A stretch of DNA of 64,000 nucleotides from Patescibacteria group bacterium (GCA_035529375.1 DATKWU010000005.1:521-64520); one strand, 5' to 3'; positions 21,517 through 53,044 are shown, counted from the stretch's first letter. The notes: generated by a model from the letters alone, not told the origin. Numbers and translations: made by a program.

Positions 21517-21634
21517 GGCCAGCCCTGACCTATTTTCGCAGACCCTTGCGGATCAACTATCGTCGGCGCTGAAGTGTTTGACTTTCGTGTTCGGAATGGG
21601 AACGAGTCGTTCCACTTCGCTCCAAGGACTGGCC
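21517..21634 (-). rRNA. rrf: 5S ribosomal RNA
   Basis: The reverse complement begins GGCCAGTCCTTGGAGCGAAGTGGAACGACTCGTTCCCATTCCGAACACG and ends ...GGCTGGCC. About 118 nt. Lies downstream of 23S on the same strand. Confidence 0.8.
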
Positions 21635-21692
21635 AATTTTTTATTTTGACTCCTTTAAAAGTGAATAGAACAATTTTAATCTACCAAATTTA

Positions 21693-24640
<2,948 letters not shown>

Positions 24641-24723
24641 TGAAGATTTAATCCACCTCCGCCCTTATGGGCTTTGGTAGATATTTTATTACTTTATTCT
24701 ATTCACTTTTCAAGGAGCCAAGG

Positions 24724-24796
24724 TGGACCGAAGCGGCTTCGAACCGCTGACCTCCTGTATGCAAAACAGGTGCTCTGCCAACTGAGCTATCGGCCC
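24724..24796 (-). tRNA. tRNA-Ala (anticodon UGC), in the spacer upstream of 23S
   Basis: The reverse complement GGGCCGATAGCTCAGTTGGCAGAGCACCTGTTTTGCATACAGGAGGTCAGCGGTTCGAAGCCGCTTCGGTCCA folds with G3:U70 and anticodon loop TTTGCAT. Confidence 0.9.
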
Positions 24797-25020
24797 AATT
24801 TTTTTAGCTCTTCATCTATTTCTTTGAGATAAGCTAAAAGAGTCTCGTATTCAGTCATCTTAAGATGATATCTAGTACTATCATGTCCGGGCCAAATTTC
24901 TTCAGAGTCTTCCTCTTCCTCTCTCATCCTTTTTTGAACTTTTCTGAGCCTCTCAAGGGCCTTCTCCTGACTTTGAAGAAGAGCCTTTTTTTTCTCTTCT
25001 TTTGAGATCTGGTTATTCAT
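24787..25020 (-). CDS. Small (77 aa) highly charged coiled-coil protein in the 23S leader region; may be spurious
   Basis: An uninterrupted frame in AT-rich DNA (MNNQISKEEKKKALLQSQEKALERLRKVQKRMREEEEDSEE...) with a heptad-like pattern. Its 3' end overlaps the tRNA-Ala by 10 nt. Confidence 0.3.
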   Translation of the reverse strand: MNNQISKEEKKKALLQSQEKALERLRKVQKRMREEEEDSEEIWPGHDSTRYHLKMTEYETLLAYLKEIDEELKKLGR

Positions 25021-25219
25021 TTCTCAAATTCTTTATTTCTTCTTCGATACTGATTAAATGTGCTCGGGCGACATTCAACTGCGACTCTTGTAACTCTGTA
25101 GCTGAATCCTCGTGTTTAACGCCCTTAAAATTTTTTAACGCTTCATCAAGCTTTGCCTTAGCTTCTTCTTTTTTTATTAATAATTCTTGATATTTATTGA
25201 CCATTTTTCCAAAAAACAA
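25013..25219 (-). CDS. Small (68 aa) coiled-coil protein; overlaps the following ORF by 8 nt; may be spurious
   Basis: MFFGKMVNKYQELLIKKEEAKAKLDEALKNFKG... Uninterrupted frame. Starts 7 nt after a terminator-like hairpin read on the same strand. Confidence 0.3.
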   Translation of the reverse strand: MFFGKMVNKYQELLIKKEEAKAKLDEALKNFKGVKHEDSATELQESQLNVARAHLISIEEEIKNLRNE

Positions 25220-25241
25220 AAAAGTCGCCCGGAGGCGACCC
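25211..25241 (-). terminator. Intrinsic-terminator-like hairpin: GTCGCC-CGGA-GGCGAC followed (on the minus strand) by TTTTTTGTTTTTT
   Basis: Perfect 6-bp GC-rich stem and tetraloop at 25224-25239. A 13-nt T-rich run follows on the minus strand at 25211-25223. On the plus strand the tail is the weaker CCTTTT. Confidence 0.5.
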
Positions 25242-25378
25242 TTTTAAGGTACCTAAGAAATCAGACTACGTCCCACGCCAAAAGAACTTGGTGATAACGT
25301 AATATTTCATCTGATTTCCCATAAGATTAAACCCGTCTGGGTTAAGCCTCCTTAATTACAATCTTATTATATGAGATT

Positions 25379-25407
25379 ATTATACGGAATGACAGAATAG
25401 ATGTCAA
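25379..25407 (-). promoter_or_regulatory. Consensus sigma70 promoter, TTGACA-17-TATAAT, firing toward the 23S side
   Basis: The reverse complement of 25379-25407 reads TTGACATCTATTCTGTCATTCCGTATAAT. Both hexamers are perfect consensus with a 17-nt spacer, as is typical of rRNA P1-type promoters. Confidence 0.55.
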
Positions 25408-25451
25408 GCGGCTAGATATCCACTCTTTTTTATGTTAAAATTTTTCTGATC

Positions 25452-25525
25452 GGGCGCGTAGCTCAGTGGTTTAGAGCGCTTACCTGATAAGTAAGAGGTC
25501 CCTGGTTCGATCCCAGGCGCGCCCA
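25452..25525 (+). tRNA. tRNA-Ile (anticodon GAU), oriented opposite to the flanking 16S/23S genes
   Basis: GGGCGCGTAGCTCAGTGGTTTAGAGCGCTTACCTGATAAGTAAGAGGTCCCTGGTTCGATCCCAGGCGCGCCCA. Anticodon loop CTGATAA. A good 7-bp acceptor stem. Confidence 0.9.
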
Positions 25526-25568
25526 CTGCGTCAAGCCACAGTGGCGTGGTCAAAAAAGACGCCTAATT

Positions 25569-27716
25569 ATGCCCGAAAAAGAAAAAATAATTTTAGAAAT
25601 AAGAATACCTCGCGAAAACGAGTATACCCCAGAATCGGCGGCTAATCTATTCTCTGGTTTCAGTAAAGCCCTTTCTTCTCAGTCAATCTTTCAGAGAATT
25701 CTTAGAAAACAATCAGAACCCTTGATTTTAGAAATTACCTGTCATCAACAAGGAATTCACTTTTATGTGGCTGTTTCTGAAGAACTTTTGCCTTTTTTAG
25801 AGAGCCAAATCTTGGCCGCTTATCCCCTTGCAATTCTTAATCGTGTCCCTGACTATCTCCAAAATTGGGAAAAAGAATCTCTGAAAATCGGCCAGATGAC
25901 TCAATCAACCAGTTATTATTATCCTATTAAAACCTATAAAGAATTCACTGATGTTGATTCACTCTCCTCTATTTTAGCGGTGATGTCAAAAGCCAGCGAA
26001 AATGATCTTTTGTTAATTCAGTTAGTCCTTCAAAAAGCCAGTTCAGGCTGGCAATCGTCAGCTCAAAGGGCCATCACTAAAGGAATCAGAATCAGTGAAA
26101 CAGAAAGGCAAGCTTTACCTGGAGAAAATTTGATTAAACAAAAAATTGAAGAAGGCGGATTAAAAACGGGTATCCGACTAGCTACTTCTTCGGAATTGCT
26201 TTTAAAATCATTAGCTGGTGGTTTTGCTCCTTTTACTCGAGGTGATGGTAACTCCCTAGCTTTCAAAAAGCCTTCTGTTCTAAATAAAAATAAATTAAAA
26301 AACGCCATCTTAACCCACCAATCAGGTTTTACCCCACGTTATCAAATTTTTTCTGTTTCTGAATTGGCCACTTTCTGGCACCTGCCTGGACAAAGTGTCA
26401 AAATTCCTAATATTGCTTGGGGGCGTTCGGTTTTAACCGAAGCACCAGAAAATTTACCAATAGCTGAAGGTTTAACCGAAGAACAAAAGTCAGAAATTAA
26501 TTTCTTTACTAGAACAGAATATAAAAATAAATTGATGACTTTTGGCATAAAAAAGGATGATCGTCGTCGTCATATTTATGCCGTTGGTAAATCTGGTACC
26601 GGTAAATCAACTATGATTGCCAACATGGCCATTGATGATCTGAAAAAGCGCCAGGGTTTGGCAGTAATCGATCCTCATGGTGACCTTTCAGAAATTCTTT
26701 TGGACTATATCCCCTCTCATCGGATAAACGATATCTGTTATTTAAATCCGGCTGATAAAGAATATCCCTTCTCTATCAATATTCTTGAGGTTGATGATCC
26801 TGCGCAAGCTGAACTTGTTGCTTCTGGAATTGTCTCTATTTTCTATAAACTCTACGCTCATTCCTGGGGACCAAGAATGGAATATATTTTGAGAAATACT
26901 TTACTCACCCTGGCTCAAACGCCCAACACTACTTTGGTTGATGTTCCTAGAATTTTAACTAACAAAAATTTCAGAAACGAAATCGTCGAAAAACTTCAAG
27001 ATCAAGTTCTGACCAGCTTTTGGACCGAAGAATATAATAAGATGCCAGACAGATTAAGAGAAGAAGCTATTAATCCCATTTTGAACAAAGTCGGCCAATT
27101 TGTTACTTCACCTTTAATCCGCAGTCTTATTGGCCAACCCAAATCAACTATTAATTTAGAAAGAATCATGAATGAGGGCAAAGTGATTATTCTTAACCTC
27201 TCCCAAGGACGTTTAGGAGAAGATAATGCTGCTCTATTAGGAGCAATGTTAATTACCAAAATTCAATTAGCCGCCATGAATCGGGTTAATATTCCTGAAG
27301 AACAAAGACGGGATTTTTATCTTTACGTCGATGAGTTTCAAAACTTTGCTACCAGGGCTTTTATTAAAATTCTTTCTGAAGCAAGAAAATATCGTCTTAA
27401 CCTTTGTTTAGCTAATCAATACATGGCTCAAATTGACGAAGACGTCCAGAAAGCAATCCTGGGAAACGCTGCCACTTTAATTTCTTTTCTAGTTGGCGCC
27501 GAAGACGCCAATATCTTAGAAAGAGAGTTTGGGGGTATTTATACAGAACAAGATTTGGTTGGTCTTTCCAACTTCCAAGTCGTGACTAAACTAGCGGTTG
27601 ATAATATTACTTCCAGACCTTTCTTTGCCTATACCCTACCCCTACCTAAATCTAAGAACCAAAACCGAGAAAAAGTCATCAGAGTTTCAAGAGAAAGATT
27701 TTCTTATAAAAAGTAA
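25569..27716 (+). CDS. TrwB/TraD/VirD4-like (FtsK-HerA superfamily) P-loop ATPase with an N-terminal ~330-aa domain of unknown function and no predicted TM helices
   Basis: Walker A GKSGTGKST, followed by the family-typical AVIDPHGDL. Walker B YLYVDEFQNF. Downstream LCLANQYMAQID. The N-terminal third has no recognisable motif. Confidence 0.65.
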   Translation: MPEKEKIILEIRIPRENEYTPESAANLFSGFSKALSSQSIFQRILRKQSEPLILEITCHQQGIHFYVAVSEELLPFLESQILAAYPLAILNRVPDYLQNWEKESLKIGQMTQSTSYYYPIKTYKEFTDVDSLSSILAVMSKASENDLLLIQLVLQKASSGWQSSAQRAITKGIRISETERQALPGENLIKQKIEEGGLKTGIRLATSSELLLKSLAGGFAPFTRGDGNSLAFKKPSVLNKNKLKNAILTHQSGFTPRYQIFSVSELATFWHLPGQSVKIPNIAWGRSVLTEAPENLPIAEGLTEEQKSEINFFTRTEYKNKLMTFGIKKDDRRRHIYAVGKSGTGKSTMIANMAIDDLKKRQGLAVIDPHGDLSEILLDYIPSHRINDICYLNPADKEYPFSINILEVDDPAQAELVASGIVSIFYKLYAHSWGPRMEYILRNTLLTLAQTPNTTLVDVPRILTNKNFRNEIVEKLQDQVLTSFWTEEYNKMPDRLREEAINPILNKVGQFVTSPLIRSLIGQPKSTINLERIMNEGKVIILNLSQGRLGEDNAALLGAMLITKIQLAAMNRVNIPEEQRRDFYLYVDEFQNFATRAFIKILSEARKYRLNLCLANQYMAQIDEDVQKAILGNAATLISFLVGAEDANILEREFGGIYTEQDLVGLSNFQVVTKLAVDNITSRPFFAYTLPLPKSKNQNREKVIRVSRERFSYKK

Positions 27717-27736
27717 CCTCAACTTTTCAGTGGCAT

Positions 27737-27767
27737 TAAAAAACCACCTTGATTAGGTGGTTTTTTC
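27737..27767. terminator. Bidirectional rho-independent terminator (AAAAAACCACCT-TGATT-AGGTGGTTTTTT) between the ATPase gene and the 16S 3' end
   Basis: 7-bp stem ACCACCT/AGGTGGT, 5-nt loop, flanked by an A6 tract upstream and a T6 tract downstream. Convergent genes lie on either side. Confidence 0.7.
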
Positions 27768-27888
27768 TTTAACCCTATTTACTGTGGTAGGAGACGTTAG
27801 TTTTGTTTCCTATCTCATAAATGAGATAAGCAAGAAAAACCAACAAAATCTTGGGGTGTCTTTTCCGCCAAAGGCGGATCGTTCACTC

Positions 27889-29350
<1,462 letters not shown>

Positions 29351-29505
29351 AAAAAAATTTCCTACCACAATAAATATTGTTAAAGGTTTACTATTCAATT
29401 TTCAAAGGACTCCTAAAAACTTAAAATCCCGGACCAAGCCGGGATTAATGCTTTATTGCGGGCAAACGCCCGACCTGGTCATTAAACTATGTCATTTCTT
29501 GGTTG

Positions 29506-32190: not shown

Positions 32191-35100
32191 TTAGCTGATT
32201 TTTTTCATTGGCAATTTCAGCCAAGAAGTTCCATTCCAGAACTCCAATGTTTTGCTTTCCACATTAAAGCCAAAAGTGCCCTTTTTAGCTTTCTTGGGCC
32301 GGCCAGTAGTGTTCCAAGAAGGAATGGAAACAGCCTTTAAGCCTAAATAACCCCTCTTGCTAACAACTTCCCTACCAACAATGAGGGGGTGTTTGTTAAA
32401 GATAACTGGCGCCGGAGGCGGAGTAGGAACAGGCCGAGGACTGGGCGAAGCTGAAGGTGAGGGGCTAATACTGGGTGAAGGTGTTGGTGAGGGTGAACCC
32501 GGTGTTGGTGAGGGTGATGGCGATGGGCTGGGGCTAGCAGACGTCGGTGAGGGTAGTGAGGGTGATGATGAAGGCGATGGAGATATTGAGCCACTGAGTG
32601 AGACCGACGGACTAAGACTAACGAGAATCGACGGTGAAACGCTTGGACTAATTGAGGCTGAGGGGCTGAGACTGGGTGAAACACTTGGACTAACTGATGC
32701 TGATGGACTAACGCTGGGTGAAACGCTTGGACTAACTGAAGCAGACGGACTGACCGATGGACTAGCCGAGGGGCTAAGCGATGGGCTGGCTGAAGGGCTA
32801 ACACTTGGACTAACTGAAGCAGAAGGACTAACGCTGGGTGAAACACTTGGACTAACTGATGCTGATGGACTGACACTTGGACTAGCCGAGGGGCTAAGCG
32901 ATGGGCTGGCTGAAGGGCTAACTGAAGGGGAAACACTGGCTGACGGAGAAACGCTAGGACTGACCGATAGACTGACCGAGGGACTCAGACTCGGTGAAAC
33001 AGACGGACTCAGACTCGGAGAGACACTTGGTGAAACTGACGGACTTAAAGAGGGACTAGCCGATGGTGAAATACTGGCACTCGGACTAAGGGAGGGACTA
33101 ACGCTTGGTGAAATTGAAGGAGACAAACTGGGACTCAAACTGGGAGATACCGAGGCAGATGGTGAAACACTTGGCGATATCGAAGGCGAAACCGATGGGC
33201 TTACTATCGGAGACAGACTTGGCGATACACTCGGTGAAATTGAAGGCGAGACCGAAGGGCTAGCACTCGGTGATACTGATGGACTAATACTGGGTGAAAT
33301 TGAAGAAGATACTGAAGCACTTGGTGATACCGATGGACTCACACTGGGTGATACTGAGGGACTAATTGACGGACTGACTGATGGTGAAGCAGATGGGCTA
33401 ACACTTGGAGAAACACTCGGTGAAACACTTGGACTGACGCTCGGCGAAACCGAAGCAGATGGTGAGACACTCGGCGATACTGAAGGAGAAAGCGATGGGC
33501 TCGCACTAGGTGAGGCCGACGGACTAATTGATGGGCTTACGCTTGGAGATGCGCTTGGTGATACTGAAGGGCTAATTGATGGTGATATCGAAGCCGAGGG
33601 AGATACTGAGGGGCTGATACTCGGAGAAACGGAAGGAGAAACTGATGGACTAACACTTGGAGAGACACTGGGGCTAATACTCGGGCTAACCGATGGCGAA
33701 ACACTAGGTGAAACACTTGGGCTGATCGAAGCAGAAGGACTAATTGATGGTGAAGCTGATGGGCTAATTGATGGTGAAGCAGAGGGAGATGCCGATGGTG
33801 AAACACTTGGACTAGCGCTTGGAGAAACACTGGGCGATACAGAAGCTGAAGGAGAAACGCTCGGACTCACAGAGGGTGAAATACTGGGTGAGACTGATGG
33901 ACTAGCTGATGGACTCACAGAGGGTGAAATACTGGGTGAAACTGAGGGACTAGCGCTTGGACTAATACTCGGACTGACTGAAGCGGAGGGTGAGACTGAT
34001 GGGCTGACAGATAGACTGGCACTGGGTGAAACAGACGGACTTACAGACGGTGAAACACTTGCCGATGGAGAGACTGAGGGTGAGATTGATGGCGAGACAG
34101 AGGGACTGACTGAGGGAGATGCCGATGGTGAAACTGATGGACTAGCGCTTGGACTAACACTCGGACTCACAGAGGGTGAGACACTGGGTGAGACTGAAGG
34201 TGAAACACTTGCCGATGGGCTGACTGACGGACTGACTGAAGGACTCACACTAGGTGAGACTGATGGGCTGACAGATACACCGATAGAGGGTGAAACTGAT
34301 GGACTTACTGAAGGCGAAACAGATGGACTGACACTGGGTGAAACTGAAGCCGATGGACTGACTGAAGGGCTGACTGAAGGTGAGACTGATGGACTAACTG
34401 ACGGAGAAACAGATGGACTGGCACTGGGTGAGACTGATGGGCTGACTGACGGAGAAGCAGATGGAGAAATTGAAGGTGAGACGCTGGCACTCGGTGAAAC
34501 GGATGGGCTTACCGATGGACTAACTGAAGGTGAAACTGAAGGAGAAACGCTAGGTGAAACACTCGGAGAAACAGACGGACTCACAGAGGGTGAGACACTT
34601 GCCGATGGAGAGACTGAAGGTGAAACTGATGGCGAGATAGACGGACTGACCGAGGGAGATGCCGATGGCGAAACAGATGGACTAGCGCTTGGACTAACGC
34701 TCGGACTCACAGAAGGTGAAACACTGGGTGAGACTGACGGTGAAACACTAGCTGATGGAGAGACTGAAGGTGAAACTGAAGGTGAAGCACTCGGAGATAC
34801 ACTCGGGGAAACTGAAGGCGAAACAGATGGACTAGCGCTTGGAGAAACAGACGGTGAAACACTTGCTGATGGACTAACTGAAGGAGAAACGCTGGGTGAA
34901 ACCGACGGGCTAGCGCTTGGACTAACGCTCGGACTGACTGAAGCGGAGGGTGATACTGACGGACTCACAGAGGGTGAAACACTGGGTGAGACTGATGGAC
35001 TAACTGAAGGCGAAACAGATGGACTAGCGCTTGGAGAAACACTGGGCGATACAGAAGCTGAAGGTGAAACGCTCGGACTCACAGAGGGTGAGACGCTGGG

Positions 35101-36333
35101 GCTTACTGAAGGACTTATAGATACACCGATAGAGGGTGAAACGCTTGGAGAGACAGACGGCGAAGCAGAAGGACTGACCGACGGTGAAACGCTTGCCGAT
35201 GGACTAACTGACGGGCTGACCGATGGTGAGACGCTGGGTGAGACTGATGGACTTACAGACGGACTGGCACTAGGACTCACTGAAGGACTAACTGAAGGAG
35301 AAGCAGAAGGACTGACTGAAGGTGAAACACTTGCGCTCGGTGAAACAGACGGACTGACCGAGGGTGAGACGCTGGGGCTGACAGACGGGCTCACACTGGG
35401 TGAAACTGATGGACTAACGCTTGGAGAGACAGACGGCGAAACGCTTGCTGATGGACTGACACTGGGACTCACTGAAGGACTAACTGAAGGAGAAACCGAT
35501 GGACTGACTGAAGGAGAGACTGAAAGCGAGACTGAAGGGCTAACACTCGGCGAAACACTCGGAGAAACCGATGGACTGGCTGAAGGTGAAATACTGGGAC
35601 TCACTGAAGGACTAACTGAAGGGCTCACACTAGCTGAGGGAGAAACTGATGGTGAAACCGATGGGGAAATCGATGGTGAAACAGATGGACTGACCGAGGG
35701 GGAAATCGATGGTGAAACAGATGGACTGACCGACGGGCTAGCACTTGGCGAAACACTCGGGGAAGCTGAAGGAGAAACCGATGGGGAAACACTGGGAGAG
35801 ACACTTGGACTGGCTGAAGGACCAGATGCCGTCAAAACCTGCGAGTGGGATTTATCTGTATCCAAAGGAATTATGGCGCCGGCAATTTTGACCCGGAAAT
35901 AATAGGTGGTGCTAGAAGAAACATTGGCCGTCGGGACAATACAAACATCAAATTCGTTATTCTTTTTTTTAGTAACCGCGCAAGTATAAGTACCGCTTTC
36001 AATGTATTGCCCTTGCGAGGTGGTGTCAGTCAAAAGCCATTGCCCAACCACAGGTGGAGAAGGATTCCCTTCGGTTGCTTGACCATCGGCATAATTCCAG
36101 TGATTAGCAGCACCAAAAGACGTCCAACCATCAATATCATTAAGGGAATACTCCATCGTCCAAGCCCCACTCCCGTTTGTGTTACCTGTTTCCCCAATAC
36201 GGATTCTCAATCTGGTCTTGTTGATATTATTGGGTAAGGTTGGCTTGGTATTTTCATTAGCCAGCTGGCTTGATGGTTCGATACCATCGTCCTGAAACCA
36301 TTTCCAATTTCCTTGGTTGGGTGTAAATGCCAT
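32191..36333 (-). CDS. Giant (1380 aa) protein: N-terminal ~170-aa globular domain, ~1100 aa of tandem [V/A/I/L]SPS tetrapeptides, Pro-rich linker, conserved ~55-aa C-terminal domain
   Basis: The non-repetitive N-terminus (MAFTPNQGNWKWFQDDGIEPSS...YYFRVKIAGAIIPLD) has no obvious signal peptide. About 275 VSPS/ASPS/ISPS/LSPS units follow. Then PSPSPSPTPGSPSPTPSP...PVPTPPPAPV. The C-terminus is shared with ORF 31915-32160. Confidence 0.8.
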   Translation of the reverse strand: MAFTPNQGNWKWFQDDGIEPSSQLANENTKPTLPNNINKTRLRIRIGETGNTNGSGAWTMEYSLNDIDGWTSFGAANHWNYADGQATEGNPSPPVVGQWLLTDTTSQGQYIESGTYTCAVTKKKNNEFDVCIVPTANVSSSTTYYFRVKIAGAIIPLDTDKSHSQVLTASGPSASPSVSPSVSPSVSPSASPSVSPSASPSVSPSVSPSISPSVSPSVSPSISPSVSPSVSPSASVSPSVSPSVSPSISPSASPSVSPSVSPSVSPSVSLSVSPSVSPSVSPSVSPSVSPSVSPSASVSPSVSPSVSPSVSPSVSPSVSPSVSPSVSPSVSPSASVSPSVSPSASPSVSPSVSPSASPSVSPSVSPSVSPSVSPSVSPSASVSPSVSPSASPSVSPSVSPSIGVSISPSVSPSVSPSVSPSVSPSASVSPSVSPSASPSVSPSVSPSVSPSVSPSVSPSVSPSASVSPSVSPSASPSVSPSVSPSVSPSASVSPSVSPSASPSVSPSVSPSVSPSASPSVSPSVSPSASVSPSVSPSVSPSVSPSVSPSASPSVSPSASPSVSPSISPSVSPSVSPSASVSPSVSPSVSPSVSPSVSPSVSPSVSPSVSPSVSPSASVSPSISPSASPSVSPSVSPSASPSVSPSVSPSVSPSVSPSVSPSASVSPSVSPSVSPSVSPSVSPSIGVSVSPSVSPSVSPSVSPSVSPSASVSPSVSPSVSPSVSPSVSPSASPSVSPSASPSVSPSVSPSISPSVSPSASVSPSVSPSVSPSASLSVSPSVSPSASVSPSISPSASPSVSPSISPSVSPSASPSVSPSISPSVSPSVSPSASVSPSVSPSASPSVSPSASPSASPSISPSASPSISPSASISPSVSPSVSPSVSPSISPSVSPSVSPSVSPSVSPSISPSVSPSASISPSISPSVSPSASPSVSPSISPSASPSASPSLSPSVSPSVSPSASVSPSVSPSVSPSVSPSVSPSASPSVSPSISPSVSPSVSPSVSPSASVSSSISPSISPSVSPSASPSVSPSISPSVSPSLSPIVSPSVSPSISPSVSPSASVSPSLSPSLSPSISPSVSPSLSPSASISPSASPSLSPSVSPSVSPSLSPSVSPSLSPSVSLSVSPSVSPSASVSPSVSPSASPSLSPSASPSVSPSASVSPSVSPSVSPSASVSPSVSPSASPSLSPSASPSVSPSASVSPSVSPSVSPSASVSPSVSPSLSPSASISPSVSPSILVSLSPSVSLSGSISPSPSSSPSLPSPTSASPSPSPSPSPTPGSPSPTPSPSISPSPSASPSPRPVPTPPPAPVIFNKHPLIVGREVVSKRGYLGLKAVSIPSWNTTGRPKKAKKGTFGFNVESKTLEFWNGTSWLKLPMKKIS
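32370..35820 (-). repeat. About 3.4 kb coding minisatellite: tandem 12-nt units (plus-strand register about GGTGARACNGAT/GGACTRACTGAA) encoding the SPS tetrapeptide array, ending in a Pro/Ser-rich tail
   Basis: 12-nt periodicity with many imperfect copies is visible throughout 32.44-35.83 kb. Shadow ORFs appear in several frames and on both strands. Confidence 0.9.
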
Positions 36334-46078: not shown

Positions 46079-47350
46079 TTATATTTCTTCTACTAATAGT
46101 TCTACAACGCTTGCTGATATAAAAGCAGTTGACCCATTATCGAGTTTAATTTCGTACCAACCTGAATTTTCGGAAACAAATTCAAAAGTGTCACCGTTTT
46201 TAGCTTCACCAATTACTTTTGAATCAGTTGTTGGACTTTGGCGAATGTTAGCGCTGGCTGATTCATCAATTTTAACTACCAGCATTGAGGTCTGTCCTAA
46301 AATTTGCGTTGAGGTCTGTTCCGGAGTTTGTGTAGGGGCCTGTTCCAAGGTTTGTGTAGAAGTCCGTCTTAAAATTTGTGTTGAAGCCTGTCCTAAAGCT
46401 TGTGTTAGAGACTGTTTCAAAGTTTGTGTTGAGACCTGTTCCGAGGCCTGATGGATGAGAGTGAGTATAGGGTTGTTTCTTTGGGTGGAGGAAAACCGAA
46501 TGTTCAGAAAACTAGAAGTAAAAAGAACCGCGAAGAAAAAAGAAGCGGCAGCAAACTCAGGGATCCTTTGGTAGATTTTTAATGGAGCGTAAGCCACTGT
46601 TCCTCTGGTAACGTTTCTCTTTGCAAGCGTAAGCATATTCTTTTCAAGATAGCCTGATTCTTTTTCAATAATTATCCTTTCAAGTAATCTTTTTTCCCTT
46701 TGGTTGAGGTTATATTTTTCAACAAAATCTTTATAGCTTTTAATGCCTTTAAGAAACTCATTTTTAAAATTTTCAAAAAATGATAAGACGGTACTTGCTT
46801 TAACCCAGGAAGTTTTTCTTTTACCCAAATAGTCTGCATAAGATGAATAACTGTCAATTAAATTATTACCTTTTTCTTCTTGGAGATGTTGGTGGAGGTA
46901 ATGAGTCATGTTTAGCAGACAGGTGGCATCATTGATAGATACTGATTTATAAGGTCCGCCGAAAAGAGAACCTTGACGCTGATATTTTTTATTGAAATAG
47001 ATAGAGTATTTTGTTGATAGAGACCTCATAAAACCCTCAAGAGAGTCTTTGGCGATTGGACATAAGAGCAAATGAAAATGATCAGGTGTTAGACAATAAG
47101 CAATTAGTTCAACTTTATTGAAATAATTTTTAGGTTGATGCGGTACGCCCCGAAAAGCGCGCCCTTTGACAGTGAAGGTTTTCTGGAGATCTTCAGATTT
47201 TTTGGGAAGAGTCAAATAGTCCTCCAGATGACTAAGAAAAACTTCGTAATCCTGTTTATCATTAAAGATGATTCCGTTTGCAATCCCCCGATTGTAGACA
47301 TGAAAGTAAATTTTACCTTTATTTGTTTTTTTAAGGCCTTGAGCAGTCAT
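46079..47350 (-). CDS. HuH-Y1 (IS200/IS605 TnpA-like) transposase-like domain fused to a hydrophobic segment, a Gln/Thr-rich octapeptide repeat and a C-terminal bacterial SH3-like domain
   Basis: N-terminus KGKIYFHVYNRG...LTPDHFHLLL (HuH) ...KKYQRQG. Middle TQTLKQSLTQALGQASTQILRRTSTQTLEQAPTQTPEQTSTQILGQTS. C-terminus KVIGEAKNGDTFEFVSENSGWYEIKLDNGSTAFISASVV (SH3b-like). Confidence 0.6.
   Translation of the reverse strand: MTAQGLKKTNKGKIYFHVYNRGIANGIIFNDKQDYEVFLSHLEDYLTLPKKSEDLQKTFTVKGRAFRGVPHQPKNYFNKVELIAYCLTPDHFHLLLCPIAKDSLEGFMRSLSTKYSIYFNKKYQRQGSLFGGPYKSVSINDATCLLNMTHYLHQHLQEEKGNNLIDSYSSYADYLGKRKTSWVKASTVLSFFENFKNEFLKGIKSYKDFVEKYNLNQREKRLLERIIIEKESGYLEKNMLTLAKRNVTRGTVAYAPLKIYQRIPEFAAASFFFAVLFTSSFLNIRFSSTQRNNPILTLIHQASEQVSTQTLKQSLTQALGQASTQILRRTSTQTLEQAPTQTPEQTSTQILGQTSMLVVKIDESASANIRQSPTTDSKVIGEAKNGDTFEFVSENSGWYEIKLDNGSTAFISASVVELLVEEI
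46283..46452 (-). repeat. About seven tandem ~24-bp coding repeats (GAGGTCTGTTCC-RRG-TTTGTGTT-like) encoding the TQ-rich octapeptide repeat
   Basis: Direct 24-nt periodicity is visible. The shadow ORF 46188-46451 on the plus strand reads as a VCVEVCS repeat. Confidence 0.8.
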
Positions 47351-47547: not shown

Positions 47548-47913
47548 AGGTCACCAGCAGGAAGAAAGGAGTTTTGTGAGAATCTCGGAGTAGATAGGGC
47601 GCAATGGTTATCAGCATGACATACTAGATGATAATGTATGGAAAATTAATTAAATTTATGGATTTTTTCCTTCCTTCTTATGCCCTACCACCAGAAGACT
47701 AATCGGCTTTAAGTCCAGTCCCAACAATTCTTTCGTTTTTTTCATTAAATGATCCCGACCCTTACTCATTATTTTTTAATCTTTTTGTCTTCACTAGGAT
47801 CAATATTTAGAGAAATAAGCAAGTTTTTAAAGACTTTTGATTAAACCTTGACAAAGTTATAAATATTGATTATTCTTTTTATTAGTACATTTTATTTTAT
47901 TTTCTTTAATCTT

Positions 47914-48228
47914 ATGCAACATCAAAAGAACTGGTTTACCATTTCAGAAGCGGCTAAACATCTTGGTGTCTCCCCTGATACTCTGCGTCGCTGGGAAAAA
48001 GCTAAAAAAATTCCTGCCCCAACAAGAACAGCTGGTGGTGCCCGACGTTATTCGAAAGATCTCTTAAACGAAATCCTAGGTAAAGGCAAGGAAGAAAAGA
48101 AAGCTAGTCAACCAACAAAACCAGAATCTCAAGGTAAATCTTCTAATAAAAAACAGCTTCTAATAGGCTTAATCGCGGCAATTACTACCATGGCTATCTT
48201 TCTCCCTCTTCTCTTTTTCCTTCTCTAA
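47914..48228 (+). CDS. MerR/excisionase-type HTH DNA-binding protein with a C-terminal TM anchor
   Basis: Preferred start MQHQKNW. WFTISEAAKHLGVSPDTLRRWEKAKKIP is an HTH_17/MerR-like motif. C-terminal LLIGLIAAITTMAIFLPLLFFLL is hydrophobic. TTGACA lies at 47849-47854 upstream. Confidence 0.55.
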   Translation: MQHQKNWFTISEAAKHLGVSPDTLRRWEKAKKIPAPTRTAGGARRYSKDLLNEILGKGKEEKKASQPTKPESQGKSSNKKQLLIGLIAAITTMAIFLPLLFFLL

Positions 48229-48389: not shown

Positions 48390-49205
48390 TTAATTAGAAG
48401 TTGATGTTAAGTAGTTTACTATCTTATCAGCAACATTAACTTTGCATAACTTATCATAAACCCTAAATTGAGGACTGCGATTAACCTCGATAACCATTAA
48501 TCTTTTTTTATCAGCTAGTAAATCTACTCCAGCAAACTCAACCTTAAAAACTTTAGTAGCTTTAAGAGCCAGACTTTCTATCTCATTTTGATCAACTTCT
48601 GGTCCTTTCCCCTCTTCTGAATTAACAAATCGCTCATTTGTTTTTCTTTCCATGATTCCTAGAGATTGATTACCCAAAACAATCACCCGCCAATAAACCG
48701 GAGTTTTGATTAATGGCTGGTAAAACCAGTTACCTGAATAGGATTTTTTTGCCTGCTCAATTTGTGGTTGATTTTCAACTCTTATCACTCTTTTTGAATG
48801 ACTGCCAAACTCGGCTTTAAGAATAGCCGGAAAAATTGGCTTATCCAAAGTAGGAATCGTTGGTAAATTATTCTCCTTCAAAACCTCTGCTTGTCTAATT
48901 TTACCTAACTTTGGCCAACTCAAATAAGCTTCCTTATTCAAACATCTAGTTCTCCTGGGTAAGGCTTTAATTAAGGCCATTTTTTCTCTTAGAAATGATT
49001 TTTTGTGACGATGAGCCGCTGAACGAGGAATAACAAAATCAAAATCCTCTAGCTCTAAACCTTGGGGTAAAAAAAGCTTGCTTTTGCTAAATTCTATATC
49101 TTGGTAATTGATGATTTCTGGTTTAATCCCCTTGTATTTAGCAGATTGAGCGAGCCTCTGAGGTTCATATTCAGGTGGAAAGCGAGTAAGAATAAGAAGC
49201 TTCAC
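48390..49205 (-). CDS. RimK-like ATP-grasp ligase (paralogue 3)
   Basis: ATP-grasp C-terminal signature AGVDLLADKKRLMVIEVNRSPQF. Its 4-nt overlap with the upstream gene suggests an operon. Confidence 0.6.
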   Translation of the reverse strand: MKLLILTRFPPEYEPQRLAQSAKYKGIKPEIINYQDIEFSKSKLFLPQGLELEDFDFVIPRSAAHRHKKSFLREKMALIKALPRRTRCLNKEAYLSWPKLGKIRQAEVLKENNLPTIPTLDKPIFPAILKAEFGSHSKRVIRVENQPQIEQAKKSYSGNWFYQPLIKTPVYWRVIVLGNQSLGIMERKTNERFVNSEEGKGPEVDQNEIESLALKATKVFKVEFAGVDLLADKKRLMVIEVNRSPQFRVYDKLCKVNVADKIVNYLTSTSN

Positions 49206-50080
49206 TTTCGGGCTTTTTTAATCAAATACCTAATGATTTCTTTGGCGACGTCAATCTTGGTTCTCTTTTCAAAAACTTCGAACTGAGGGGCTTCATTAAC
49301 TTCAATAACGACTGGCTGATTATTTCGCTTGTCTAAAACCATATCAACTGAAGCAATTTCTACTTTCAAAGCTCGACAAGCTTTCTCTGCTTCTTCTTTA
49401 ATTGCCTGAGGAATTGTTTTCAAAACCTCTGATGAACCTACTGAACGATTCAAAACCAATTTTTCCTCTTTTTTCTGTCTCTTAAAACCGCCTAGAACCT
49501 GATAACCAATCAACATTAATCGATAATCACCGTCGTTAGGAACGTATTCCTGAAGCAAAAAGCCTGTTTTTTCAATCCTTCCTTTAATGGCTCGTTCTAA
49601 AACTTCCTTATCCTTAATTAATAAAGTTCCCATTCCCTGTCTGCCTCCCTTAGAAATCTTTAAAACAAAAGGATATTGAAAATTCTTAGCTTCCTCTAAT
49701 AATCTTTCTTTATTGGAAGCAAAACTTGTTTTGGGATAATTAATCTTATCCCCAGCTAGAATAACGCCACCAATGCTCTTAGCTCTCTTTTCCAAGCCTA
49801 AATCAGTTAAATAGTCATCAACAACAGGAATTTTATGCCTCTGAGCATAAAGAATAAGTAAGTTTGCCCATTCTGTCGCTCCTCCCACTGCCCGAAAATA
49901 GAATAAATTAAAATCTGCTAAAGATTCACCTTCATATAAAATTTTAAATTCGTTCCCCTTTTGTCTCAGGGTCAAATCATCATATTGGATTGGGATCAAT
50001 TCAATCCCTTCCTTTTTAGCGGATTCTAAAAATTTCTCTCCGGTATCAAACCAAACTCGATAAAATAAGGCAATTTTCAT
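49202..50080 (-). CDS. RimK-family ATP-grasp (alpha-L-glutamate ligase-like) enzyme (paralogue 2)
   Basis: YPFVLKISKGGRQGMGTLL...ASVDMVLDKRNNQPVVIEVNEAPQFEVF, typical RimK motifs. Confidence 0.7.
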   Translation of the reverse strand: MKIALFYRVWFDTGEKFLESAKKEGIELIPIQYDDLTLRQKGNEFKILYEGESLADFNLFYFRAVGGATEWANLLILYAQRHKIPVVDDYLTDLGLEKRAKSIGGVILAGDKINYPKTSFASNKERLLEEAKNFQYPFVLKISKGGRQGMGTLLIKDKEVLERAIKGRIEKTGFLLQEYVPNDGDYRLMLIGYQVLGGFKRQKKEEKLVLNRSVGSSEVLKTIPQAIKEEAEKACRALKVEIASVDMVLDKRNNQPVVIEVNEAPQFEVFEKRTKIDVAKEIIRYLIKKARK

Positions 50081-51400
50081 TTAAATTCTCCTAAATTGGG
50101 CTGATTCTATTGGCTCTGGTCTAACTAAAAAGCCCATCAAGTCCCTTAAACCTACTAAGAAAGGTGTTTTTAGGTGTGAACGCCTGGTAACACTAGCACT
50201 GGTTTTAATTCTCCTGCCTTTTAAGTAAAAAGTCAAACTAATTACTTTCCTTTCTTTCCTCTTACCTAGAGCCGATTGATAGTAACGGGTGAAAATCGTG
50301 TTCTCTGGAGTCAATAAGCCCAATTCTTCGGCCAGTTTTTTATCAATCGAGCTCCTTAGAGCTCCGGTATCTATCTTTGCTAAAACAGAGACTGTTTTCT
50401 TATTCGCCGCCTTAATCTTAACTTCCTCGAGAACATTAATAATTTTAGCCCCTTTTTTAGCAAGAACTTTATCAGCAAACCGCTCAGCAAAAAGGTCTTG
50501 GGCAATCTTTACCCCCTTTTCGGCTCCATCGACTGTTAAGCCTTCAACCCTCGCTAATCTCCCTCGTAAGGGCGCTAGATTAGCATTCTGAATATCTAGC
50601 CCCGGTCGAGCATTAAGTTCTAGAATCATTGGTCCTTTTTCCTTATCTAAAATGATATCAACTCCGAAAAAGCCTAACTGAGAAACAACTTCCTGAATTT
50701 TAACCGCTAAAATTAAGGTTTCTTCCCAAAAAGGTAACTTTAAACCATTAATTTTCTTCTTTGTCCCCGGAATAAGCTTAACTCTTCTGCCATTATAAAA
50801 GCCATAGGTCGTGATGCCGGTAGCTAAATCAATTCCCACTCCAATCGCTCCCTGGTGGAGATTAGCCTTTCCTCGAGATTCAGGCGTGGGTAAACGAAGC
50901 ATAGCCATTACCGGCACCTTATTAAAAACGATTATTCGAATATCGGGTGTCCCTCGATAAGTATATCTTTTAAAAATTGGGTGAATTTTAACTCGTTCTT
51001 CAACAAAAGCTTTGTCAGGTAGATTATGAAGGCTAAAACGCCCAGCAAAGATATCAAGAATATGTTGTCTGATTTGACTGATATCAATCTTCTCATCTCC
51101 CATTAAATACCATTCCCCTGCCCATTTGCCTTTTTTCTTAATGACTAAAATTCCATCTCCACCTAAGCCTCGACTTGGTTTAACGACGAAATTACCTGGT
51201 AGTTTTTCCCATTGAAAATTATTCAAATCTTCAATTGTCTCAAAAACTGCGTAAAGTTTAGGATGAGGCAGATTATGCCTGCTGAGAATTTTTTTGGTTA
51301 AAAGCTTAGAATCAGCAATCTTCCTCCCTCTTTTTTTATTAAAGCGGAGATAAACTTGATTACGGGCATTTTTACCTAGGAGATAATAGGTCTTTGCCAT
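50081..51400 (-). CDS. ATP-grasp ligase domain fused to a C-terminal retropepsin-like (DTGA) domain of the RimK-associated so-called Zn-protease family
   Basis: N-terminal ATP-grasp-like region. C-terminal SVLAKIDTGALRSSIDKKLAEELGL carries a D-T-G-A aspartic-protease signature, as in the family found next to RimK-like ligases. Confidence 0.6.
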   Translation of the reverse strand: MAKTYYLLGKNARNQVYLRFNKKRGRKIADSKLLTKKILSRHNLPHPKLYAVFETIEDLNNFQWEKLPGNFVVKPSRGLGGDGILVIKKKGKWAGEWYLMGDEKIDISQIRQHILDIFAGRFSLHNLPDKAFVEERVKIHPIFKRYTYRGTPDIRIIVFNKVPVMAMLRLPTPESRGKANLHQGAIGVGIDLATGITTYGFYNGRRVKLIPGTKKKINGLKLPFWEETLILAVKIQEVVSQLGFFGVDIILDKEKGPMILELNARPGLDIQNANLAPLRGRLARVEGLTVDGAEKGVKIAQDLFAERFADKVLAKKGAKIINVLEEVKIKAANKKTVSVLAKIDTGALRSSIDKKLAEELGLLTPENTIFTRYYQSALGKRKERKVISLTFYLKGRRIKTSASVTRRSHLKTPFLVGLRDLMGFLVRPEPIESAQFRRI

Positions 51401-51403
51401 AAA

Positions 51404-52303
51404 TTAACCTTCTTTTAAAACTCGTCGGAAGCGAAACAATTCTAAAAGCCGTATGCCAGTATAGCGACCAATAAGAATATCAAAAACAGGCACAATAATT
51501 AAAGTCAATTCAGGATTAAGCAGAACAAATTTTTGCAGAATTTGGAGTTTCATTAAACCAAAACAAGAAAAAGCCAAAATCAATGTCTCAATCGTGATTT
51601 TAACCGCTTCCCTTAAACTTCTTCCCTTTTGGACATCAATAAAGGCTTCAGAAAGAAGAATCAAAATGAGAATTGGGAAAATGGAAACAATAGCAATATC
51701 CATCCATTCTAATAAAGGAGCAAAAAGGACTACTAAAAGAACAGCCAAAGAAATAAACCAAAACAACAAGGCCATTCGTGGTAAATAATGAATCCTGATT
51801 CTAATTTTTCTCAAAAGAAAACGGCCAAAGTTAGTCATCGCCAAAATCGCAAAGAAAAGAAATAAACCAGGAATAATCCCGGTCGCATAAAGAGCCACGG
51901 AAATCATGGTAGGCGTAAAAATACCAAATCCACGAATACCAACTAAATGTCGTAAGGCAGCAATCACGGCAACTAGAATAGGTAATAATAAGATCAGAAC
52001 AATCGTATTAACCGGAACACCAGAGACAACGGCTCGATGGATAACGTGTTTAAAAAAATTAGTGATCCCTAGAGAACCTAATTGCTGTTCATTTAAAGCT
52101 CTATCCAACTCTGTTAAAGGTACTTGAGGCTCCGTCAAATTTCCTCTCTGTTCAGGAGGAATTGGCCAAACGAATTGACCCTGAGCCATAAGGCCATTGG
52201 TTTTTCCCAAAACAAAGAAAAAGCTAAAAGCAATTAATAAGAAACAAATGAACTTCTTAATCATCTTAACTCTATTATAGTAAACCGAAATCATTAGAAG
52301 CAA
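51404..52303 (-). CDS. Polytopic membrane protein, candidate 7TM partner of the ATP-grasp/retropepsin operon
   Basis: 299 aa. Signal-like N-terminus followed by about 7 hydrophobic helices. Immediately upstream of the ATP-grasp genes (4-nt gap). Confidence 0.45.
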   Translation of the reverse strand: MLLMISVYYNRVKMIKKFICFLLIAFSFFFVLGKTNGLMAQGQFVWPIPPEQRGNLTEPQVPLTELDRALNEQQLGSLGITNFFKHVIHRAVVSGVPVNTIVLILLLPILVAVIAALRHLVGIRGFGIFTPTMISVALYATGIIPGLFLFFAILAMTNFGRFLLRKIRIRIHYLPRMALLFWFISLAVLLVVLFAPLLEWMDIAIVSIFPILILILLSEAFIDVQKGRSLREAVKITIETLILAFSCFGLMKLQILQKFVLLNPELTLIIVPVFDILIGRYTGIRLLELFRFRRVLKEG

Positions 52304-52312
52304 GAAGAAAGA

Positions 52313-53044
52313 TTACTTGGCTAATTCAGCCTCAATAATCGTTTTGAAGTTTGAAAAAGGCACGGCACCAACTAACATTTGACCATTAATAAAGAAAGTT
52401 GGTGTTCCTTGAACGCCTACCTCCAATCCTAAATCTCTATCAGTTTCTATTACTTGAGTATATTTACCTGAATCAAGACAGGTATCAAACTCTGCTTTGT
52501 TTAATAAATTCAACTGACTAACGAAGTTATCAATATCAGCATCCACACTCTCTTTCCCAGACCACTCCTCTTGGTTTTCGAAAATAAGATTATGCATTTG
52601 CCAATACTGGCCTTGGTCGCCGGCACAACGGGCGGCCTCAGCCATCTTTTGAGCATGGGCATGAAATTGAAGAGGAAAATCATGAAAGATATAACGAATC
52701 TGGTCACCATATTCCTCCAATATCTGAGGATAACTCTCCATTACATATTTACCGCAATAAGGACATTGATATTCAGAAAATTCAACAATTGTCACGGGAG
52801 CATTTTCTTCACCTTTAACCGCCGCTCCTCCACTCTCAATTTTTTTAATTTGTTCTTCACCAAGCACTTCTCCTTGCTCTTGAGCGGCTTGAGGAGCAGG
52901 ACTCGCCTGGGCAATTTCCTTTTTTCCCTCCCCACCCTGGCCTAAAAATCTCATCACAAACATTCCTATCAAAAAAGCGACAATGAGGGCTAAGACAAAA
53001 ATAATTATGGTAGTTAGACTTCGTTCTTTTTTTTCTTCTGCCAT
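52313..53044 (-). CDS. DsbA/BdbD-like thiol:disulfide oxidoreductase, membrane-anchored
   Basis: N-terminal TM helix. Thioredoxin-fold active site EYQCPYCGKY. Confidence 0.8.
   Translation of the reverse strand: MAEEKKERSLTTIIIFVLALIVAFLIGMFVMRFLGQGGEGKKEIAQASPAPQAAQEQGEVLGEEQIKKIESGGAAVKGEENAPVTIVEFSEYQCPYCGKYVMESYPQILEEYGDQIRYIFHDFPLQFHAHAQKMAEAARCAGDQGQYWQMHNLIFENQEEWSGKESVDADIDNFVSQLNLLNKAEFDTCLDSGKYTQVIETDRDLGLEVGVQGTPTFFINGQMLVGAVPFSNFKTIIEAELAK

Follow-up and report, generated by a model that had tools for sequence, protein, structure and literature searches.

Which product is made by an ATP-grasp ligase that works beside a seven-transmembrane (7TM) protein, and on which target? For the Rlo proteins RloB and RloC, this question was first posed in 2025, and the locus described here bears on it directly, carrying the same machinery in a simpler form and in a very distant, genome-reduced phylum. 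It is located on a stretch of 64,000 nucleotides (nt) from a Patescibacteria group bacterium (GCA_035529375.1, DATKWU010000005.1:521-64520; hereafter the window), in which four minus-strand genes of the same direction fill positions 48390-52303. Their open reading frames (ORFs) were all confirmed at these coordinates and encode a 7TM membrane protein, a fusion of an ATP-grasp ligase with a retropepsin-like protease, and two ligases of the RimK family, so that three consecutive ATP-grasp genes and a gene for a polytopic membrane protein, as originally predicted, were found by both ORF and Pfam analysis.

Our analysis describes this locus as a relative of the polyglutamate systems Rlo and Rim of Pseudomonas, reduced in its parts and with a different arrangement of them, which lacks a transglutaminase domain, carries its protease fused to a ligase, and harbors extra ligases. 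Homology to the Rlo and Rim machinery is held with high confidence. With moderate confidence, we favor its interpretation as a membrane-docked, ATP-driven write-and-trim machine that acts on acidic peptide chains with alpha linkages, which probably consist of glutamate.

Conservation of the Core Genes

For comparison, loci were collected at species level from GTDB genomes (80 loci) and from metagenomes (five loci). Counts are given for 82 non-duplicate loci, in which genes were scored by comparing stop-to-stop ORFs with the window proteins, and counts of downstream RimK-family genes refer to the 61 loci with at least 2.5 kb downstream of the fusion. The 7TM gene was found directly upstream of the fusion gene and on the same strand in all loci (82/82), and the retropepsin domain was present within the fusion in 81/82, the sole exception being interrupted by a contig end. 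One or more RimK-family genes were located downstream in 50/61 loci, namely exactly one in 29 and two in 21, and in 44/61 the gene was adjacent and co-directional. No RimK-family gene was detected downstream in 11/61 loci, in at least three of which (L005, L016, and L028) the next gene encoded a different ATP-grasp protein. The two-RimK arrangement, which includes the ligase 2 gene, was thus found in only 21 of these 61 loci. According to these counts, the core consists of the 7TM protein, the ligase–protease fusion, and at least one further ligase, with the second RimK gene being accessory. Orthologues of the fusion, with a length of about 430-480 amino acids (aa), were identified in at least 80 species-level Patescibacteria genomes.

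The original prediction had named domain searches and operon conservation as its own checks. The former returned ATPgrasp_ST, RimK, PF05618, and 7TM_transglut, all positive, and the latter is reflected in the counts given above, so that neither of the two outcomes named there as a refutation occurred.

In other relatives, a gene for an M28 peptidase or a C26 (gamma-glutamyl-hydrolase-type) protein was found inside the operon. The families M28, C26, and MATCAP, the last of which occurs in fusions described below, typically attack glutamyl or C-terminal residues, and these partners would thus fit an acidic peptide product.

Some of the collected loci displayed further features. A DUF3541 domain was fused to a RimK-family ligase in L039 (7281-8852) and L046 (7182-9053) and adjoins a 7TM–ligase fusion in L089 (902-2098). 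In L017, which has no RimK gene, the fusion is followed by genes for a MacAB-like exporter (HlyD, ABC ATPase, and MacB/FtsX permease), and ORFs downstream of the fusion in L021 and L022, likewise without a RimK gene, match this exporter in size and order. Its position beside the fusion could reflect a link to export or a coincidence. Many of the operon-bearing GTDB records (L006-L079) are titled "uncultured Gammaproteobacteria bacterium" or "Pseudomonadales", yet their proteins share 47-93% identity with proteins from named Patescibacteria; these titles look like generic or mistaken labels and should not be taken to mean a proteobacterial distribution.

Gene Organization and Host

Table 1. Features of the ligase–retropepsin locus and its upstream neighbor in the window.
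Feature	Position	Strand	Product or residues	Domain match
7TM membrane protein gene	51404..52264	(-)	286 aa from ATG at 52264	
Ligase–retropepsin fusion gene	50081..51400	(-)	439 aa	
Ligase domain of fusion	50543..51364	(-)	aa 13-286	PF14397
Retropepsin (RimB/RloA-like) domain of fusion	50111..50449	(-)	aa ~318-430	PF05618
RimK-family ligase 1	49202..50080	(-)	292 aa	PF08443
RimK-family ligase 2	48390..49205	(-)	271 aa, GTG start	PF08443 + PF18030
DsbA-like thioredoxin-fold protein, membrane-anchored (upstream neighbor, non-core)	52313..53044	(-)		Thioredoxin_4 2.9e-33

The features of the locus are listed in Table 1. A longer ORF call of the 7TM gene (51404-52303, 299 aa) begins with a TTG at 52303, and relatives as well as the NCBI annotation support the ATG given in the table as the probable start. 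The intergenic distances within the operon, as read from the sequence, are 3, 0, and -4 nt. A 3-nt spacer separates the stop codon of the 7TM gene from the ATG of the fusion gene, whose TAA in turn abuts the ATG of RimK-family ligase 1 without any gap, and RimK-family ligases 1 and 2 overlap by 4 nt (GTGA). These junctions have the layout of a translationally coupled operon. Scans for promoters and terminators gave background levels only and were uninformative on the transcript boundaries. Regarding the host, window proteins reached identities of 100% and 94% with database entries that carry the names Patescibacteria group and Microgenomates group bacterium RBG_19FT_COMBO_39_10, and remoter homologues carry the names Woesebacteria, Shapirobacteria, Beckwithbacteria, and Paceibacterota. 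The host is a tiny, uncultured Patescibacterium of the Microgenomates group.

The Ligase Half of the Fusion

The ligase domain of the fusion matched Pfam ATPgrasp_ST (PF14397) well over the cutoff (4e-66), and its best NCBIfam model was TIGR02291 ("alpha-L-glutamate ligase-like"), with an alignment spanning positions 12-313 of 317. Those standalone relatives of about 320 aa that were tested, which are 39-44% identical to the fusion ligase, exceeded the cutoff of this model. We infer that TIGR02291 corresponds to the RloC family, and the fusion ligase is classified here as RloC-like, in a family distinct from RimK. It has no RimK-type N-terminal pre-ATP-grasp domain and keeps a RimK-like ANLHQG motif. 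The three ligases called "triplicated" in the original description are no triplication, since the fused one is of the ATPgrasp_ST/TIGR02291 type and the other two belong to the RimK family and are only 27% identical to each other.

For inspection of the active sites, the E. coli RimK sequence, which agrees with the fragment in 5zct, served as reference. In RimK numbering, the ATP-binding K141, R189, and the Mg triad D248/E260/N262 are intact in all three ligases of the window. The catalytic residues of the three ligases, like those of the protease described below, are thus intact.

An AlphaFold2 (AF2) model of the fusion (predicted local distance difference test score, pLDDT, of 80.8) had its closest folds in RimK (5zk6 and 4iwx, and also the RimK-RpsF complex) and in ArgX/LysX; both RimK and ArgX/LysX are enzymes that extend the C-terminal carboxylates of proteins. 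The graspetide ligase PsnB appeared only at rank 48. In a PDB search with the whole fusion as a single sequence no match was obtained, so that profiles were required.

The Protease Half of the Fusion

Fusion of a D-T-G-A aspartic-protease-like domain to one of the ligases had been noted from the sequence and was confirmed by a match to PF05618 (Zn_protease/RimB-like) over the cutoff (7e-7, 29.7 bits, cutoff 27). Retropepsins, which are proteases of the HIV-protease type, are recognized by two signatures, D-T/S-G-A and G-R-D/N. In the fusion, the catalytic motif D344-T-G-A occupies residues 344-347 (window 50360-50371), and a second signature is found as G417-x-R-D420-L. An alignment of 20 family members (A1) revealed D344, G346, A347, G417, D420, and L421 as invariant, and the pattern (K/R)-x-D-(T/S)-G-A was kept in 84/84 surveyed fusions.

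Comparison of a profile of the protease domain with the PDB resulted in hits to 9g59 (1.1e-8), 9g58, and 2pma, followed by the retropepsins ApRick and Ddi1. The structures 9g59 and 9g58 are labelled "putative ATP-dependent zinc protease", and 2pma is a Legionella RloA-like protein cited in PMC12239564. RloA binds polyglutamate via K46, R114, and R137 around the catalytic D48, and the exchanges R114A and R137A abolish both polyglutamate cleavage and complementation (PMC12239564). In the alignments with 9g59, 9g58, and 2pma, in which positions were mapped by motif spacing, K342, D344, R384, and R407 of the fusion align with RloA K46, D48, R114, and R137, respectively. D344, R384, and R407 are invariant in alignments A1 and A3, and K342 is invariant in A1 and present in at least 90% of A3. 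The resulting basic K/R/R channel is suited to acidic chains.

Regarding its location, neither a signal peptide nor a transmembrane (TM) segment was found between ligase and protease of the fusion, and 79 of 84 orthologous protease domains contained no cysteine. Periplasmic RloA orthologues share a conserved disulfide, which is absent from cytosolic RimB (PMC12239564). Due to the lack of signal peptide, TM segment, and cysteines, the fused protease is predicted to act in the cytoplasm, like RimB.

The 7TM Membrane Protein

The 7TM protein was recognized by Pfam 7TM_transglut (3.9e-25) over profile positions 56-247 only, and the NCBIfam model for RloB aligned solely from 312 to 508 of its 508 positions (80.5 bits, cutoff 900). 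No transglutaminase domain was detected by Pfam, by NCBIfam, or in the family alignment (A2), and the roughly 60 residues that separate the signal peptide from TM1 offer no space for one. The 7TM-transglutaminase family named in the original prediction is thus represented by its 7TM part only, and the transglutaminase domain that the family name implies is absent.

Alignment A2 showed a signal peptide, a variable low-complexity linker, and then a strongly conserved core, and seven long helices follow the linker in the AF2 model (pLDDT 79). All loops rich in Arg/Lys and the RFRR tail lie on one side according to our reading of the sequence. By the positive-inside rule, the topology would be N-out and C-in with an extracellular linker, which would place the conserved motifs R105-H106, Y160-L-P-R-M164, and R272 at the cytoplasmic face. 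When the PDB was searched with this model by Foldseek, nothing significant emerged; the top hits, with E = 0.45, were NqrD/RnfA-type subunits (TM-score ~0.43-0.46) and were not interpreted. The conserved C-terminal tail was also considered as a general acceptor, and this was rejected because relatives P0372 and P0374 fuse that C-terminus straight to a ligase.

The Two RimK-Family Ligases

Both remaining ligases exceeded the Pfam cutoffs, ligase 1 with PF08443 (8.9e-25) and ligase 2 with PF08443 (1.8e-19) and the pre-ATP-grasp domain Rimk_N (PF18030). Against the RimK equivalog PRK10446 they reached 67 and 46 bits at a cutoff of 331, so that they are members of the family and not orthologues of RimK. 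Given their low mutual identity, the pair is old. A motif VIEVN-x-PQF had been reported for two of the ligases; VIEVN indeed occurs near the end of both RimK proteins (VIEVNEAPQF and VIEVNRSPQF), with two residues and not one between N and P.

The best PDB matches of ligase 1 were the RimK structures 7qyr, 5zct, and 4iwx. Among its orthologues, K141, R189, D248, E260, and N262 were kept in 66/66, and in the class of ligase 2 K141, R189, D248, and E260 were kept in 25/25 and N262 in 24/25. The ligase 2 of the window has the most diverged nucleotide pocket, in which the positions of RimK E178, D187, and N213 read P, Y, and E.

Weak NCBIfam matches of ligase 1 to ATP-grasp peptide maturases (GRASP_SAV_5884, 7.5e-9; grasp-with-spasm, 2e-3), both far under cutoff, and the general resemblance of ligases, protease, and membrane protein to clusters for ribosomally synthesized and post-translationally modified peptides (RiPPs) might point to a graspetide-like pathway, in which ATP-grasp enzymes would cross-link or extend a precursor, the protease would remove its leader, and the 7TM protein would export it, but we consider this very improbable, as the abutting and overlapping genes leave no space for a precursor gene, no small acidic ORF was found nearby, the nearest folds are RimK and LysX with PsnB far behind, and the cluster is kept as a housekeeping-like block across many reduced genomes.

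Fusion Architectures in Relatives

An exhaustive HMMER search of 1.84 billion cluster representatives yielded 2086 relatives of the fusion, 426 of them below 1e-30. Domain architectures were scored with custom domain hidden Markov models for the best 150 of the 2086 relatives, and selected members were scanned with Pfam. Among these 150 representatives, 46 consisted of the ligase alone, 44 of ligase–retropepsin, 31 of ligase–retropepsin–MATCAP, and 17 of ligase–MATCAP with no retropepsin detected, so that a MATCAP-family domain occurred in the same chain as the ligase in 48/150. Three were 7TM–ligase fusions and one was a retropepsin–7TM–ligase fusion, and the remainder combined ligase–retropepsin with a second ATP-grasp domain, a YdjC domain, or another extension; in P0246, the fused domain is a YdjC-like carbohydrate deacetylase. 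The 7TM–ligase, retropepsin–7TM–ligase, and ligase–retropepsin–MATCAP carboxypeptidase fusions tie the parts of the system together.

Roughly half of the long forms with MATCAP have a decayed D-T-G motif and R407 position, whereas both are largely intact in short forms such as that of the window. This suggests that a carboxypeptidase can stand in for the endopeptidase. A literature search for MATCAP with ATP-grasp in bacteria found nothing relevant. An expanded operon built around a MATCAP fusion was observed in L086 (1870-10678), where six genes encode PKD–7TM_transglut (516 aa), ligase–retropepsin–MATCAP (800 aa), ATP-grasp (339 aa), ATP-grasp/RimK (333 aa), standalone MATCAP (575 aa), and ATP-grasp (332 aa) proteins.

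Comparison with Known Systems

From amidoligase gene neighborhoods, Iyer, Abhiman, Burroughs, and Aravind (Mol Biosyst 2009) reportedly predicted a peptide-ligation module in which ATP-grasp ligases are combined with a 7TM protein and an aspartyl protease, and ATPgrasp_ST, 7TM_transglut, and Zn_protease as Pfam families reportedly go back to the same work. The original prediction had likewise placed the locus in a conserved predicted module, and studied counterparts now exist in rloABC and RimK/RimB (PMC12239564, PMC11957791). In P. aeruginosa, rloABC comprises a secreted retropepsin (RloA), an inactive-transglutaminase-7TM protein (RloB), and an ATP-grasp protein (RloC) (Lormand et al., mBio 2025, PMC12239564). 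Mutants without the three secreted RloA proteases have a defect that is suppressed by deletion of rloB or rloC (PMC12239564), which implies that something produced by the 7TM protein and the ligase has to be cleared by the protease. The rlo genes affect hypo-osmotic tolerance, cell shape, biofilm formation, and beta-lactam sensitivity or antibiotic tolerance in Pseudomonas, and RloB was reported to be 96% proteobacterial (PMC12239564).

The locus shares with rloABC the combination of a 7TM_transglut-family protein, an ATPgrasp_ST ligase (here with a TIGR02291 match below the cutoff), and a D-T-G-A retropepsin in one operon, as well as the K, R, and R substrate-contact residues of the protease. 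In contrast, a signal peptide and a short linker take the place of the transglutaminase domain in its 7TM protein, its protease has neither signal peptide nor disulfide cysteines and is located C-terminally on a cytoplasmic ligase, so that RloA and this protease work on different sides of the membrane, and the operon, whose host belongs to the Patescibacteria, contains one or two additional RimK-family ligases. Since two defining features of rloABC are missing, namely a transglutaminase domain on the 7TM protein and a secreted protease, the locus should not be classed as a member of rloABC.

In the RimK/RimB system for ribosomal protein S6, to which RimA also belongs, RimK synthesizes poly-alpha-L-glutamate and adds glutamate to the RpsF C-terminus, whereas RimB shortens polyglutamate tails and stimulates RimK about fourfold (Little et al., JBC 2025, PMC11957791). 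The RimB–RimK hybrid of Desulfotalea psychrophila, RimBK, is an active protease (PMC11957791). Genes resembling RimK-family alpha-L-glutamate ligases and a cytosolic retropepsin are common to these systems and the locus, and in both ligase and protease can share a polypeptide. However, the protease of RimBK is N-terminal to a RimK-type ligase, whereas that of the window is C-terminal to an RloC-type ligase with the RimK genes separate, and the window system is obligatorily paired with a 7TM protein. The locus should not be classed with RimBK either, because domain order and ligase family differ. Literature searches for RimK or RimB with Patescibacteria gave nothing relevant, and in the papers searched no link between Rlo and Patescibacteria was found.

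Two more distant systems offer analogies. In eukaryotes, the tail code of tubulin is written by ATP-grasp ligases (TTL/TTLL), which attach amino acids at the C-terminus or as branches, and MATCAP and CCP carboxypeptidases remove them. As in our system, ligases are paired with dedicated peptidases and several specialized ligases belong to one system, and a MATCAP domain occurs in relatives, but the window system is bacterial and membrane-anchored and its operon contains no MATCAP. The second is PgsBCA/CapBCA, the poly-gamma-glutamate synthetase with its depolymerase CapD/PgdS, in which PgsB has a Mur-ligase fold and forms gamma links. Like the machine proposed here, it works at the membrane, depends on ATP, makes polyglutamate without ribosomes, and has a hydrolase of its own, but it shares no homology with the 7TM protein or the ATP-grasp ligases.

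Proposed Mechanism and Alternatives

In the write-and-trim machine that we favor, the RloC-like ligase would sit at the cytoplasmic face of the RloB-like 7TM protein and, together with one or two RimK-family ligases, would use ATP to form an alpha-linked oligo- or polyglutamate or a similarly acidic peptide, either as a free chain or on the C-terminal carboxylate of an acceptor. The ligase-fused retropepsin would dimerize and cut acidic chains, thereby limiting or releasing the product, and would probably also stimulate the ligase, as RimB does with RimK. The 7TM protein would serve as membrane dock and possibly as conduit to the outside. Several parts of this scheme are more conjectural, namely glutamate as the presumed monomer, docking on the 7TM protein, and a putative export. 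By analogy with TTLL enzymes, the ligases may divide their labor into initiation and elongation, and by analogy with rloABC, the physiological role may lie in envelope or osmotic homeostasis. The more general wording of the original prediction, which speaks of ATP-dependent peptide ligation or poly-amino-acid modification and leaves the target open, is the right level of claim. Its suggestion that Lys-rich tails are possible targets is not supported, since the channel of the protease is basic and, with 7 or more K among the final 15 residues as threshold, no Lys-rich C-terminus was found among window ORFs of at least 150 aa, a scan that covered C-termini only.

Several observations weigh against this interpretation. 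The fusion ligase remained below the cutoff of TIGR02291 (2.2e-79, 266.7 bits, cutoff 314.2), as did RimK-family ligases 1 and 2 with TIGR00768 (101 and 103 bits, cutoff 143), and these scores may indicate a specificity other than glutamate. In both RimK-family classes, RimK His215 is replaced by Ser. At the thresholds used, the scan of window ORFs revealed no acidic C-terminus nearby and hence no local acceptor candidate, and rpsF was not found in the 64-kb window by tblastn, so that the classical RimK target lies outside our view. With the protease of the window being cytoplasmic and RloA secreted, the genetic logic established in Pseudomonas may not transfer directly. As the fold of the 7TM protein matches nothing solved, its role in transport is a guess. 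Moreover, no RloC-type ligase, that of Pseudomonas included, offers a precedent for product, monomer, or acceptor (PMC12239564).

A broader version of the preferred reading is put forward tentatively. Here, the locus would represent, in its smallest version, a widespread and as yet unrecognized class of non-ribosomal peptide polymerases that are coupled to the membrane. Their ATP-grasp ligases, docked on the 7TM protein, would make an acidic alpha-peptide, which the 7TM protein would translocate to the surface. The product would be poly-alpha-glutamate or a defined hetero-oligomer with one residue type per ligase, control of chain length or release would fall to the fused retropepsin (in relatives, to MATCAP), and the polyanion would be an envelope, osmotic, or host-contact component of epibiotic, genome-reduced cells of the candidate phyla radiation (CPR).

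A classical RimK/RimB system, in which the RimK genes would polyglutamylate S6 (RpsF), the fused retropepsin would trim the tails, and the 7TM protein would be an unrelated neighbor, is unlikely. It could account for the two RimK-family genes with RimK as their closest solved relatives, for a protease that is cytosolic, cysteine-free, and RimB-like, and it has a precedent for a ligase–protease hybrid in RimBK. The invariant pair, however, is formed by the 7TM protein and the RloC-type fusion, whereas RimK occurs in 0, 1, or 2 copies and is sometimes replaced by other ATP-grasp proteins. Furthermore, the protease is fused to the RloC-type ligase and not to RimK, single-chain 7TM–ligase and retropepsin–7TM–ligase fusions exist, and both RimK genes score far under the RimK equivalog.

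Slightly less probable still is the amidation of glycan or lipid-linked precursors, by which amino acids would be added onto carboxylates of sugar acids or peptidoglycan, with the 7TM protein as flippase or scaffold and a secondary role of the protease. Such a pathway would be supported by the Pfam name of PF14397, "sugar-transfer associated ATP-grasp", by the YdjC-like fusion in P0246, by several glycosyltransferase genes elsewhere in the window, and by the cell-shape and beta-lactam phenotypes of Pseudomonas rlo mutants. Yet, no glycosyltransferase was found beside the 7TM–fusion pair in those related loci whose genes were listed or scanned, the recurrent partners are peptidases (retropepsin, MATCAP, M28, and C26) and more amino-acid ligases, and the protease keeps the residues for contact with polyglutamate.

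Neighboring Genes and Other Features of the Window

The stop codon of the DsbA-like gene lies 48 nt ahead of the ATG of the 7TM gene. This gene is part of an upstream DsbA/ferredoxin/thioredoxin-reductase/thioredoxin/SDR (short-chain dehydrogenase/reductase) block, which is syntenic in closer relatives only (L001-L011, L015, and L030) and not in Shapirobacteria loci; as its synteny is confined to close relatives, the block was rejected as a component of the system. In L005, the syntenic gene for thioredoxin reductase (3352-5457) is split by an intein with a LAGLIDADG endonuclease.

On the other side, convergent with the end of the operon, the window encodes a 120-aa MerR-type helix-turn-helix protein with a C-terminal TM segment (47866-48228, plus strand). 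A 423-aa protein (46079-47350, minus strand) has a weak match to an IS200-like Y1 transposase (aa 78-154) and a hydrophobic segment. It also harbors short repeats of the STQ(T/I)L type and a C-terminal bacterial SH3 domain, which is odd for a relative of transposases. Farther away, an ORF of 1380 aa (32191-36333, minus strand) consists over about 1100 aa of SPS[V/A/I] tetrapeptide repeats with non-repetitive sequences at both ends; its product may be an extended surface protein, and its presence explains why the stretch from 32 to 36 kb is rich in guanine and cytosine (GC; 0.50-0.52) and strongly GC-skewed. A bacterial rRNA operon is located at 21517-29355, with a 16S-23S spacer of about 3.2 kb that contains two tRNA genes, one in the same orientation as the rRNA genes (24724-24796) and one facing the other way (25452-25525).

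Implications

The domain content of the locus was predictable from Pfam, and what this variant adds is its bearing on what RloB and RloC make. Since the Patescibacteria form has no transglutaminase domain and a ligase-fused protease, neither this domain nor secretion of the protease would be essential to the core chemistry, and with the protease welded to the ligase, both would act on the same molecule at the cytoplasmic side, at least in this lineage. The natural fusions (7TM–ligase and ligase–protease–MATCAP) and the multi-ligase operons are compact constructs for biochemistry of the product. If the polymerase reading is true, the capsule machinery for poly-gamma-glutamate would have an alpha-linked equivalent in this system, which would also provide the product that is missing for RloBC of Pseudomonas and Vibrio. 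Patescibacteria have genomes of about 1 Mb, and conservation in at least 80 of their species-level genomes suggests that the system matters to these organisms.

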